DNA from: Escherichia coli
Lineage (GTDB): Bacteria; Pseudomonadota; Gammaproteobacteria; Enterobacterales; Enterobacteriaceae
Reading direction: 5' to 3' (one strand)
Assembly (NCBI RefSeq): GCF_003790525.1
Contig: NZ_CP033635.1
Length of the DNA: 64,000 bases
Part shown: positions 245 to 59,685 of the stretch, piece by piece
Numbering within the stretch: position 1 is the stretch's first letter
Layout of the letters: each line of letters starts with the position of its first letter
Made by a program: the position numbers and the translations under genes
The notes under the pieces: generated by a model
Seen by the model: the letters and a program-made list of their open reading frames with translations, nothing else
Databases searched by the model: none
Told to the model about the DNA's origin: nothing

Positions 245-435
245 CTTTTGTTAACTCCTTTTTATAGATGCGGGAGGTAATTCCTCACCCCGGTGCCGAT
301 TTTCAGGCATCCTGATTTAACTTAGCACCCGCAACTTAACTACAGGAAAACAAAGAGATAAATGTCTAATCCTGATGCAAATCGAGCCGATTTTTTAATC
401 TTTACGGACTTTTACCCGCCTGGTTTATTAATTTC

Positions 436-26881: not shown

Positions 26882-30034
<3,153 letters not shown>

Positions 30035-30051
30035 TACAACGTGTAATCACT

Positions 30052-30076
30052 AAGGCCGCGCAAGCGGCCTTTTTTA
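30052..30076 (+). terminator. Intrinsic terminator after acrB
   Basis: GGCCGC-GCAA-GCGGCC hairpin followed by TTTTTT, 20 nt after the acrB stop. Confidence 0.75.
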
Positions 30077-30579
30077 TGCATAACCTACGAACATTAAGGA
30101 GTCATTGAACCACCAACTCAGGATCTCATACGAAAACCAGTATTAAACACGTATAAAATTCATAAAAAATACTGATTGTTAGTTAATTTATATTAAGTAG
30201 CGCTAATAGATTTAATAATCCATAATCATTTAGAGGCTATTCTTAATTATTTGCGGTAATTCTTTATTCATTCCTCGGTTATTACGTCATATTCAGAGCA
30301 ATCCTGGTATTAGTGTTACCAATTTCATCTGGCGATAATCCTGAAATGTTATGAACAGTTCGAGCAAACTGCTTTTACCTGCTGCGGGTTAGTGCTAGTA
30401 TGAAAAAGTAAGTCCTGTCCCGCTTCCTTCCTAATTGTAATTTTTCGTAATAATGCGATGAAAACCTGCAAAGAGTGGCTTATAGTTAAGCTAACAAACG
30501 AGAGGGCAAGTCCAGGTCAGTAAGTTTTTTCCATCCCGAAAGGTGTCCGTTAGTTCAACCGCTAAGAAGGGGACGAGTT

Positions 30580-30954
30580 ATGGATGAATACTCACCCAAA
30601 AGACATGATATCGCACAGCTTAAGTTTCTCTGTGAAACCCTGTATCATGACTGTCTTGCAAACCTTGAAGAAAGCAATCATGGCTGGGTTAACGACCCAA
30701 CCTCGGCGATCAACCTCCAGTTGAATGAACTGATTGAGCATATTGCGACTTTCGCACTTAATTACAAAATTAAGTATAATGAAGACAATAAGCTCATTGA
30801 GCAGATCGACGAATATCTGGATGACACCTTTATGTTGTTCAGCAGTTATGGTATTAATATGCAGGATCTCCAAAAATGGCGGAAGTCAGGTAATCGACTA
30901 TTCCGTTGTTTTGTCAATGCGACGAAAGAGAATCCTGCGAGTTTATCTTGTTAG
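30580..30954 (+). CDS. tomB: Hha toxicity modulator TomB (YbaJ), 124 aa
   Basis: ORF track 124 aa; immediately upstream of hha. Confidence 0.88.
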
Positions 30955-30979
30955 AATTATTACAACCATGGGTAGAAGT

Positions 30980-31198
30980 ATGTCCGAAAAACCTTTAACG
31001 AAAACCGATTATTTAATGCGTTTACGTCGTTGCCAGACAATTGACACGCTGGAGCGTGTTATCGAGAAAAATAAATACGAATTATCAGATAATGAACTGG
31101 CGGTATTTTACTCAGCCGCAGATCACCGCCTCGCCGAATTGACTATGAATAAACTGTACGACAAGATCCCTTCCTCAGTATGGAAATTTATTCGCTAA
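30980..31198 (+). CDS. hha: Haemolysin expression-modulating protein Hha (72 aa), H-NS co-regulator
   Basis: ATG 30980 within the longer track frame; translation [72 protein letters not shown]. Confidence 0.92.
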
Positions 31199-31369
31199 TA
31201 AATAATTGGCTTTCGGAGCTATAACCAGCTGTTTATTAAGAATTTTATACTTTATCGCCATGAAGGCATACCCTATGTGATCTTCATCACACAGACGTAA
31301 TGGGAACGTTCTCTTCACTGACTTTTCGTCTTACTGTGTTGCCGCATTTTCAGCAACCGGAGGTCAGTA

Positions 31370-59229: not shown

Positions 59230-59685
59230 TCTGTAAATATTATTTAGCTGTAGTAATCACTCGCCGTAATTATTACGGCTAAATAAACATCAGCATCGCT
59301 TATTAATATTTGTTCTTTTGTGCGGCTTAGCGTCTGGAAATTATTGACGCTATTTATGAATTCTATTTTTCTTACACGATTCAGCAAATGAGTCTTTATT
59401 TTCTCACTACCAAGTTGTCACCTTAATGATAATTATTTGTTAAATAATTGTTTTATTTCGCATTGGTTATACCAATTGCCCGCCCAGACTCCTTCTGCAC
59501 TCCCCTTTTGTTATAACGCCCTTTTGCAACAGCTTCTTAAAATCAATCCGATATGTTTTGCAACATATGTGACCTGGAAGCCAAATCCAAGTAACAGGAA
59601 TTTAATCATGTTTACAGTAATGTAACCTTCCCGTAAAATGCCCACACACTTTAAACGCCACCAGATCCCGTGGAATTGAGGTCGT

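Follow-up and report, generated by a model that had tools for sequence, protein, structure and literature searches.

The acrB-tomB intergenic region of Escherichia coli: a probable control region for tomB-hha that includes a candidate RcsB-type box

Introduction

What is encoded by, or acts through, the long AT-rich stretch that separates acrB from the tomB-hha operon in Escherichia coli? H-NS silences virulence and biofilm genes as well as horizontally acquired ones, and Hha and TomB tune this silencing; the timing of such adjustments therefore depends on the inputs to the tomB-hha promoter. An initial annotation, made from the DNA sequence, described the gap as AT-rich, ORF-free DNA of the H-NS-bound regulatory type, and proposed that it could hold a long leader, multiple promoters or an unannotated small RNA. 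These proposals were examined in a 64-kb stretch of E. coli DNA (hereafter, the window) and in the homologous loci of other enterobacteria. The features are collected in Table 1.

Table 1. Features located in the acrB-tomB gap and the downstream operon, in window coordinates.
Feature	Coordinates	Strand	Basis or remarks
Intrinsic terminator of acrAB, hairpin AAGGCCGCG-CAAG-CGCGGCCTT followed by a T-run	30052-30077	+	Terminator scan
Variable spacer, no cross-genus conservation	30078-30150		Column identity ca. 0.02-0.16; gapped in the representative alignment
Distal conserved AT-rich module, TCATAAA..CTTATTGT..TTTATTTT..AATAAG..TATAAT	30155-30225		Conservation profile and consensus
RcsB-type pseudopalindromic box TCAGAGCAATCCTG	30293-30306		Center at -193.5, counted from the start site
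PdhR-box-like site ATTAGTGTTACCAAT	30309-30323		Centered at -177; one mismatch to ATTGGTNNNACCAAT
Conserved nucleotide motif G-c-TAAc-N3-ATGAA-N3-tAAGg; E. coli AAATGTT-ATGAAC	30344-30392	+	ATG at 30351
Invariant block TAATTGTAATTTTTCGTAATAAT with tandem GTAAT-N5-GTAAT (30437-30451), CpxR-box type	30431-30454		Centered at -49, just upstream of the -35 element
Sigma-70 promoter of tomB-hha: -35 ATGAAA (30458-30463), 17-bp spacer, -10 TATAGT (30481-30486)	30458-30486	+	Promoter scan
5' UTR of tomB-hha, 87 nt, start at A30493	30493-30579	+	Published start site; conserved block GTATCCATCCCGA
tomB-hha operon (context)	tomB 30580-30954, hha 30980-31198	+	Both genes AT-rich

Results

Locus and composition

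The acrB open reading frame was found to end at 30034 and the tomB ATG to begin at 30580, which places the gap at 30035-30579, exactly the 545 bp first described. Its GC content is 0.374, compared to 0.518 for the whole window, and only 0.46% of the 545-nt segments across the 64 kb are equally AT-rich. The GC content is 0.344 in 30076-30430 and 0.30 in the core (30076-30300). In 50 kb of annotated genome with ca. 46 intergenic gaps, none is longer than the acrB-tomB gap. The contrast in composition that had been claimed for both flanks was evident for acrB (GC 0.537) but hardly for tomB (0.403) or hha (0.402); the true AT-rich island comprises 30076-31369 (ca. 1.3 kb, GC 0.386) and takes in tomB-hha.

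E. coli SMS-3-5 matches the window at 100% identity, and the gap contains no annotated feature in the RefSeq annotation of either SMS-3-5 or K-12. Of 5426 complete E. coli genomes, 5423 contain the gap, almost always as a single copy; among the 15 genome records listed, no annotated feature lies under the match. In K-12, the same locus is the promoter region of tomB (ybaJ)-hha (480709-481253, minus strand). Eight of the 545 bases differ (537 are identical), the promoter hexamers and the start site are the same, and nothing of substance distinguishes the two. All eight substitutions lie outside of the promoter, the CpxR-type tandem and the core of the RcsB-type box; one of them (30317) falls within the PdhR-like box, at a position that the consensus leaves unspecified.

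The description of the gap as free of ORFs was literally incorrect, given that mechanical ORFs of 21-40 aa were present on both strands, but none of these is conserved. Specifically, a 21-aa ORF at 30458 (which begins inside the -35 element) and antisense ORFs of 40 aa and 24 aa were discarded for want of conservation.

Conservation across enterobacteria

Synteny of acrB and tomB was established in 76 of 80 fetched loci (the other four had too little upstream sequence); with the window included, 77 gaps were compared. Over these 77 enterobacterial species, which represent more than 20 genera, the length of the gap is 435-559 bp and its GC content 0.35-0.40. The alignment features discrete conserved islands within a matrix that otherwise drifts freely.

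The first element of the gap is a Rho-independent terminator, as had been noted initially; the hairpin and its T-run were recovered by the scan. The stem has 8 bp with six G-C pairs (30052-30071) and is followed by TTTTTT. Fold z-scores of -2.4 and -2.6, the sole significant ones in the region, belong to this hairpin. The terminator was present in all 77 species, and both sides of its stem vary together (e.g. GGCCGCG/CGCGGCC to GGCCGCA/TGCGGCC); that is, the stem is kept by compensatory change.

Promoter, start site and leader

A single sigma-70-like site was returned by the promoter scan on the plus strand of the gap, and it matches the consensus at 9 of 12 positions. The identical hexamers, with the same spacing, have been reported as the RpoD-SELEX "constitutive promoter" of tomB-hha (PMC3946193). 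All 79 loci have the -10 hexamer TATAGT, 87-107 nt ahead of the tomB start codon. The 50 nt upstream of the published K-12 start site of tomB (87-nt UTR, 53 reads; PMC3415461 supplement) are identical in the window, where transcription would begin 7 nt after the -10 element. The same promoter is used in Klebsiella, with a 97-nt leader, and the start-site table contains no further site between those of tomB and acrA (PMC3415461 supplement). A GFP fusion of the -198..-1 fragment demonstrated that the promoter is active (PMC2408971); the primer site of that reporter corresponds to 30381-30400 of the window and is identical. Thus, neither the long leader nor the multiple promoters envisaged in the initial annotation were borne out by the mapped start sites and the consensus scan.

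The RpoS holoenzyme has been placed at this locus in two ways. A ChIP peak was reported at K-12 479920-480115, which was converted to 30397-30592 of the window, and a SELEX peak lies inside of the tomB-acrB spacer. In Salmonella, tomB is reported to be rpoS-dependent. If additional condition-specific promoters (e.g. RpoS-, Rcs- or temperature-dependent) were located in the distal part of the gap, they would produce tomB leaders of 170-350 nt, and the conserved islands could be RNA elements. We consider this arrangement rather unlikely, although a conditional upstream promoter retains some probability because the Yersinia ymoBA operon has two start sites (-188 and -106) and because of the RpoS-holoenzyme SELEX peak. 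The RpoS dependence in Salmonella points the same way, as do two conserved -10-like hexamers: one at 30214-30219, which is TATAAT in most genera, and one at 30396-30401, which is TAGTAT in E. coli and TATAAT or TAAAAT elsewhere. Against these observations, the published table lists one tomB start site each for E. coli and Klebsiella, the plus-strand scan detected no other site in the gap, the conserved TATAAT has no -35 element at 16-18 bp in the aligned species that were inspected, and the distal part has no stable RNA structure.

The leader itself carries CATCCC at 30532-30537 and a Shine-Dalgarno sequence, AGGGGAC, at 30568-30574. Pairing of CAUCCC with a Shine-Dalgarno sequence GGGAUG could subject the 87-nt leader to translational control, through a thermosensor, Hfq acting with a small RNA, or CsrA. 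The leader is well conserved within the Enterobacteriaceae, and 94.6% of the sequence-pair cells allow the 6-bp pairing, as opposed to 19-67% when the partner is slid. Further, the supplement of a Salmonella Hfq study has 18 vs. 4 cDNA reads for ybaJ (i.e. tomB), taken here as co-IP counts in a table whose headings are not shown. The helix shows zero covariation, though, and Escherichia has an uncompensated A.C mismatch (GGGGACG). The minimum free energy of the leader is no better than that of shuffled sequences (z = +0.49), and the RNAalifold consensus of 31 diverse leaders was just a 3-bp CCC/GGG helix (-5.3 kcal/mol). The CCATCCC block is missing in Cronobacter, Cedecea, Erwinia and Pantoea. 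Translational control of this kind is consequently held to be unlikely.

RNA content of the gap

A small RNA missing from the annotation had been among the initial proposals; located on either strand, it could account for a gap that is long, conserved in length and furnished with conserved islands. The evidence that was gathered makes it very improbable. At a permissive threshold, Rfam returned no family in the gap, and all of the sub-threshold matches were the acrB terminator hairpin. A second intrinsic terminator was found on neither strand of the gap, and sliding fold z-scores on both strands were never below -2 outside of the acrB terminator. No extra start site is listed, and the islands are short and palindromic or tandem, like protein-binding sites. 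The supplement of the Hfq study cited above does have ybaJ at values of about -2.9 (the headings not being shown), along with the read counts, but these entries are for the mRNA, not for a separate RNA.

The individual Rfam matches (uxuA, isrD, isrK, Trp leader, CRISPR-DR28 and STnc180) were rejected; all rest on the terminator hairpin. In Salmonella, STnc180 is located between acnA and cysB, not at the tomB locus.

Distal segments

Between the terminator and the RcsB-type box, two segments of different character were delineated. The first (30078-30150) is mostly missing in other genera and, judged from the alignment, looks like an extra segment specific to Escherichia. The second, the conserved module at 30155-30225, has no canonical -35 element, was not picked up by the promoter scan and has no listed start site; it could be an H-NS nucleation site, a set of sites for other factors or a conditional promoter.

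Closer to the promoter, the ATG at 30351 opens a 13-codon ORF (MNSSSKLLLPAAG; stop at 30390-30392). Of the 77 species, 72 retain this ATG, and its distance upstream of the tomB start codon is 227-262 nt. The near-fixed distance from tomB, together with the M-(N/K)-x-K start of many of the peptides, might suggest a translated small ORF or leader peptide that regulates tomB-hha. Such a function is hard to credit: the peptides range from 5 to 46 aa and are unrelated beyond ca. four residues, there is no consistent Shine-Dalgarno sequence, and the ATG precedes the only start site to have been mapped by 142 nt, ahead of any known transcript. Moreover, codon 3 has a fixed third base but variable first and second bases, the opposite of coding constraint.

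Site forms for IHF, Cra, SlyA, ArcA, OmpR and PhoP, as well as promoter forms for sigma-E, sigma-28 and sigma-S, were compared to the motif TAAC-N3-ATGAA..TAAGG, and none fits consistently across species.

That the gap is a functionless remnant of horizontally acquired or mobile DNA, as its low GC content relative to acrB, the extension of the AT-rich island over tomB-hha and the lineage-specific segment at 30078-30150 might imply, is largely refuted by the conservation data and was given next to no credence, given the near-universal, single-copy presence in E. coli (5423 of 5426 genomes), the retention of synteny, length and GC content over more than 20 genera, the strongly conserved islands and the absence of notable direct, inverted or tandem repeats from the gap.

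CpxR-type tandem

The consensus CpxR box is a tandem, GTAAA-N5-GTAAA. In the invariant block upstream of the -35 element, GTAATTTTTCGTAAT matches 8 of the 10 bases of this consensus, and its pentamers are 10 bp apart. The block is near-invariant over the 77 species. Erwinia and Pantoea, in which the upstream gene differs, have the tandem in the form TGTAATTTTTNGTAA; the -10 element survives there too. The tandem pattern occurs twice in the window, compared to an expectation of 0.33.

The CpxR regulon in RegulonDB includes tomB and hha, and the CpxR iModulon includes tomB; tomB is absent from the "direct targets" of the CpxR ChIP-exo study itself (PMC7657598). Phosphorylated CpxR (CpxR~P) gel-shifts the orthologous ymoBA promoter of Yersinia, where the motif lies 56 bp upstream of the second start site (PMC13353760). 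We infer that the GTAAT tandem is a CpxR operator in E. coli.

RcsB-type box

The pseudopalindrome TCAGAGCAATCCTG fits the RcsB box, TN(G/A)GAN4TC(T/C)NA, at every specified position except for the final A. In other genera the consensus is TAAGAATATTCCTr; in Cedecea the palindrome is perfect (TAAGAATATTCTTA), and the Cronobacter version reads TCAGATTAATCCCA. Compared to TAAGAATATTCCTA, 68 of 77 species agree at 11 or more of the 14 positions. For 12 or more positions the figure is 53 of the 77, vs. 3 of 385 shuffles. The box occupies the homologous place in 60 of 77 species, with its center 193-225 nt upstream of the -10 element, and constitutes an information peak between unconserved columns. 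For E. coli alone, a relaxed RcsB pattern was found nine times in the window, with 9.2 occurrences expected per 64 kb, which is the level of chance.

Based on its sequence and conservation, the palindrome at -194 is predicted to bind RcsB. A literature search found no paper linking RcsB to tomB-hha, and the box appears to be one modest new lead that we did not find described.

PdhR-like box

ATTGGTNNNACCAAT is the consensus of the PdhR box. With at most one mismatch allowed, it was matched at just two places in the 64 kb, namely the site at 30309 and a perfect box in the cyoA-ampG gap (the cyo promoter, a known PdhR target). The operon tomB-hha has been listed as a direct target of PdhR (PMC3265435). 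The 30309 box is probably the PdhR site in question. In the 77-species alignment the PdhR-like box is absent outside of Escherichia, with column identities of 0.1-0.5.

H-NS and Hha

The motif TCGATAAATT is a high-affinity nucleation motif for H-NS. It is not enriched in the gap, where one match with two or fewer mismatches was found (1.8 per kb, compared to 1.5 per kb in the window). This sole match overlaps the invariant GTAAT block.

A table of genomic SELEX results flags the tomB-acrB spacer "HNS", the meaning of which is confirmed by the legend; this is a flag and does not provide binding coordinates (PMC3946193). Hha acts as a repressor at the ybaJ(tomB)-hha promoter, where it binds in vivo, resulting in negative feedback (PMC2408971). 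These two reports bear out the initial view of the gap as H-NS-type regulatory DNA, and its status as an H-NS-bound region, i.e. an AT-rich tract with documented H-NS occupancy, is supported. The distal AT-rich DNA may act as a platform for H-NS nucleation and spreading. The initial annotation had named a single short tomB leader and a lack of H-NS enrichment as the observations that would argue against it; the first is what the transcript map gives, whereas the second is at odds with the SELEX flag.

Discussion

The 545 bp between acrB and tomB are very probably the control region of the tomB-hha operon, running from terminator to start codon. The elements of this reading that come from the present analysis or from the cited experiments are the terminator, the promoter and its start site, H-NS on the spacer, autorepression by Hha, the activity of the -198..-1 fragment and the pattern of conservation.

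The region would operate as follows. Transcription of acrAB would end at the strong intrinsic terminator. The next ca. 350 bp of AT-rich DNA (GC 0.34) would be bound by H-NS and, through H-NS, by Hha, such that Hha represses its own operon. Embedded in this DNA would be islands for protein binding: the RcsB-type palindrome (-194), the PdhR-type box (-177) and a pair of AT-rich motifs. The CpxR-type GTAAT tandem at -49 would act directly upstream of a sigma-70 promoter with a weak -35 element. Transcription from A30493 would then yield the 87-nt leader, with its GGGGA Shine-Dalgarno sequence, followed by the tomB ATG.

Such a control region is nothing unusual and was known before this analysis: publications cover the promoter with its start site, occupancy by H-NS, autorepression by Hha, and control by CpxR and PdhR. 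The long AT-rich gap in itself adds little because most of the control region is already in the literature. New from the comparative footprinting is a map of the constrained bases in the 545 bp over more than 20 genera, including the position-conserved RcsB-type palindrome. Tentatively, the distal half may be a conserved and hitherto undescribed regulatory module, in which an RcsB-type operator ca. 195 bp upstream of the start site places the production of Hha and TomB under the Rcs envelope-stress relay as well as under Cpx, and in which CTTATTGT..TATAAT and TAAC-N3-ATGAA..TAAGG serve as other inputs or as a conditional promoter. We regard this proposal as possible but short of probable.

Three comparisons with known systems place the locus. 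In Yersinia pseudotuberculosis, the orthologous ymoB-ymoA operon resembles tomB-hha in having a leader of ca. 100 nt and a CpxR motif that precedes the proximal start site by ca. 50-56 bp; in gel shifts the promoter is bound by CpxR~P, which also raises its activity (PMC13353760). It differs from the E. coli operon in its second start site at -188.

The published RcsB boxes of osmB and ytfK in Salmonella, which are located at -215 and -161 and are gel-shifted by RcsB~P, are similar to the tomB box. All are pseudopalindromes with an RGA-N4-TCY core located ca. 160-215 bp upstream of the start site (here, -194). The E. coli tomB box departs from the published RcsB consensus in ending in G rather than A, and its assignment is a prediction from sequence; its center is GCAA, whereas that of other genera is typically ATAT.

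The gaps upstream of csgD, flhDC, bgl and proU in enterobacteria are long, AT-rich, silenced by H-NS and subject to multiple inputs. The tomB gap is of the same type, comprising several hundred AT-rich bp with many factor sites, one main promoter and H-NS occupancy. Unlike in those gaps, the silenced operon at tomB encodes Hha, the co-repressor of H-NS itself, which closes the negative feedback loop that has already been published.

The tomB-hha control region

The 545-bp gap between acrB and tomB (alias ybaJ; 30035-30579) is the control region of the tomB-hha operon. It is already characterised; modestly new are a position-conserved RcsB-type palindrome and two conserved distal motifs, islands (c) and (e). 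All 545 bases were identical to those of E. coli SMS-3-5, and of 5426 complete E. coli genomes, 5423 carried the sequence, nearly all as a single copy; eight of the 545 bases differed from K-12. The RefSeq annotations of SMS-3-5 and K-12 place no feature within the gap.

The initial annotation had described a long AT-rich gap, and the measurements agreed: GC was 0.374 vs. 0.518 for the window, only 0.46% of 545-nt windows had equally low GC, and the gap was the longest of about 46 in 50 kb of annotated genome. Its description as ORF-free held for annotated features, but mechanical ORFs of 21-40 aa were present on both strands. Similarly, the proposed contrast with the flanking genes applied to acrB (GC 0.537) but not to tomB (0.403) or hha (0.402); an AT-rich island of ca. 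1.3 kb (30076-31369, GC 0.386) spanned the gap together with tomB, hha, and the hha-maa spacer. Repeat searches of the gap gave nothing notable, whether direct, inverted, or tandem.

Features of the acrB-tomB gap and its surroundings (window positions)
Feature	Position	Strand	Description
acrB end	30034		
Intrinsic terminator after acrB	30052-30071		8-bp G+C-rich stem, then T-run; terminator scan
Island (a)			acrB terminator; stem changes on both sides
Segment (b)	30078-30150		unconserved, mostly missing outside Escherichia
Island (c)	about 30160-30220		distal AT-rich module TCATAAA..CTTATTGT..TTTATTTT..AATAAG..TATAAT
Island (d)	30293-30306		palindrome
Island (e)	about 30344-30365		G-c-TAAc-N3-ATGAA-N3-tAAGg
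Island (f)	30431-30489		near-invariant TAATTGTAATTTTTCGTAATA..CGaTGAAAT..AGAGTgGaTTATAGTTA
Sigma-70 promoter	30458-30486	+	ATGAAA-17-TATAGT; promoter scan
Island (g)			tomB leader
tomB start	30580		
hha	30980-31198		

Conservation across enterobacteria

One genome per species was scanned, yielding 80 loci with TomB at ≥89% identity. The 76 with acrB upstream were aligned together with the window (77 gaps); the other four lacked enough upstream sequence. Conservation across enterobacteria was borne out: the gaps were 435-559 bp long (median 509) with GC of 0.35-0.40, and sharp conserved islands, (a) and (c)-(g), stood within a freely drifting matrix. All 79 loci carried TATAGT, which preceded the ATG by 87-107 nt. 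An imperfect 18-nt palindrome centred on TAGCGCTA (30188-30215), in the distal AT-rich module, was apparently Escherichia-specific.

The comparison was widened to Cronobacter, Cedecea, Erwinia, and Pantoea. In the Erwiniaceae pair (Erwinia amylovora and Pantoea, loci L085 and L086; 1000-1900), the gap was only ca. 145 nt, and the upstream neighbour was a 117-aa ORF, without a Pfam match, instead of acrB. TGTAATTTTTNGTAA and TATAKT were kept in register in both despite the different upstream gene, and are therefore regarded as the deep promoter core. A YscW-family gene lay downstream of tomB-hha in this pair. Separately, predicted proteins of 201-205 aa carried both YbaJ/TomB and HHA Pfam domains (P0005, P0008, P0010, P0026, and others in the protein collection); these apparent TomB-Hha fusions came mostly from read-archive assemblies and may stem from frameshifted alleles or from misassembly.

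Promoter and start sites

The terminator scan returned one site in the gap, directly 3' of acrB, and the promoter scan a single plus-strand site. RpoD-holoenzyme genomic SELEX had assigned the constitutive tomB-hha promoter to the same ATGAAA-17-TATAGT (PMC3946193). For K-12 tomB, one start is listed genome-wide, with an 87-nt 5' UTR and 53 reads (PMC3415461 supplement). The published 50 nt upstream of it matched the window without difference, so the start was placed at A30493, 7 nt past the -10 element. The same promoter serves Klebsiella pneumoniae tomB, with a 97-nt UTR (PMC3415461 supplement). The multiple promoters and long leader proposed at first were thus not recovered. A conditional upstream promoter is a less likely alternative: an RpoS-holoenzyme SELEX peak lies in the tomB-acrB spacer (PMC5493296), and transcription of the orthologous ymoBA operon of Yersinia pseudotuberculosis begins at two positions, -188 and -106 (PMC13353760). 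A sigma-S ChIP-seq peak at K-12 479920-480115 (PMC4447067) corresponds to 30397-30592 by our own arithmetic conversion.

Two hha-specific starts are reported inside K-12 tomB, 115 and 16 nt upstream of hha (PMC3415461 supplement); hha transcription without tomB is therefore possible. They fall at 30866 and 30965. The promoter scan inside tomB gave TTCGCA-18-TATAAT at about 30751-30780.

RNA and small-ORF candidates

An unannotated small RNA found no support in Rfam or fold scans. At a permissive threshold, Rfam matches in the gap were all sub-threshold and on the acrB terminator hairpin; STnc180 was rejected, as it maps elsewhere in Salmonella. Sliding 100-nt folds on both strands were unremarkable save for windows containing the terminator. 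The tomB leader folded no better than its shuffles (z = +0.49), and RNAalifold gave -5.3 kcal/mol for 31 diverse leaders. A 6-bp pairing of the conserved CAUCCC with the Shine-Dalgarno GGGAUG was possible in 94.6% of cells, without covariation; the Escherichia leader carried an uncompensated mismatch, and the CAUCCC block was absent in more distant genera. In supplementary tables of a Salmonella Hfq study, ybaJ has values of ca. -2.9 and, in a table taken to give Hfq co-immunoprecipitation counts, 18 vs. 4 cDNA reads; these entries hint at post-transcriptional control of tomB mRNA.

The ATG at 30351, 142 nt upstream of the sole mapped start, was positionally conserved in 72 of 77 gaps, the only such start among the window's small ORFs. 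It was rejected as a gene: its peptides (5-46 aa) were unrelated, no consistent ribosome-binding site was found, and the third base of codon 3 was fixed as the first two varied.

Regulators of the region

The spacer is flagged "HNS" (H-NS binding sites contained) in the RpoD SELEX table (PMC3946193), which, with the composition, upholds the idea of H-NS-type regulatory DNA. Because the H-NS high-affinity motif was not enriched in the gap, H-NS occupancy is argued from these two observations. The suggested link to Hha also stood, and this feedback loop has been in the literature since 2008: a -198 to -1 fragment (30382-30579) drives GFP, at levels that are higher when hha is mutated and lower when Hha is overproduced, and Hha was detected in vivo on its own promoter (PMC2408971).

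Direct PdhR regulation of tomB-hha has been cited (PMC3265435). ATTAGTGTTACCAAT (30309-30323) had one mismatch to the PdhR palindrome and was restricted to Escherichia in the 77-gap alignment. The only other match in the window was a perfect box, ATTGGTTATACCAAT (59462-59476), upstream of cyoABCDE. It lay between cyoA and ampG, in a 459-bp gap where the AT content of the window, taken over 545 nt, is highest. cyo is a known PdhR target, with which this box is consistent.

CpxR boxes take the form of a tandem pentamer, GTAAA-N5-GTAAA. Island (f) contained GTAAT-N5-GTAAT at 30437-30451, centred at -49 from A30493; the relaxed tandem occurred twice in 64 kb (0.33 expected). A perfect GTAAA-N5-GTAAA (GTAAAAGTCCGTAAA) lay at 401-415, minus strand, in the divergent copA-glsA intergenic region. 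RegulonDB's CpxR regulon includes tomB and hha, and the CpxR iModulon includes tomB, which is absent from that study's ChIP-exo direct targets (PMC7657598). In Y. pseudotuberculosis, CpxR~P raises the activity of the ymoBA promoter, to which it binds at a motif lying 56 bp 5' of the proximal start (PMC13353760). In view of the regulon membership and of the CpxR~P gel shift in Yersinia, we infer that the GTAAT tandem is the CpxR operator in E. coli. Read 5' to 3', the acrAB terminator is followed by an H-NS/Hha-occupied AT-rich region with factor sites, the CpxR-type tandem, and one sigma-70 promoter, whose transcripts begin at 30493 with an 87-nt leader.

A candidate RcsB box

Island (d) read TAAGAATATTCCTr in most genera and fitted the RcsB homodimer box, TN(G/A)GAN4TC(T/C)NA. 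Kluyvera matched TAAGAATATTCCTA at 14 of 14 positions, and at least 11 of 14 matched in 68 of 77 gaps; of 385 shuffled gaps, just 3 scored as high as 12 of 14. The centre lay 193-225 nt upstream of the -10 element in 60 of 77 gaps. Cedecea (perfect palindrome, TAAGAATATTCTTA) and Cronobacter (TCAGATTAATCCCA) had copies at the equivalent place. The E. coli copy, TCAGAGCAATCCTG, retained every specified base but the last; the relaxed pattern in E. coli was unremarkable alone (9 matches, 9.2 expected). No literature linking RcsB to tomB-hha was found, and the palindrome, a putative RcsB site, is offered as a lead, not a result. In sequence, it resembles the boxes of osmB and ytfK, at -215 and -161, which RcsB~P binds according to the study that gives the consensus (PMC7913699).
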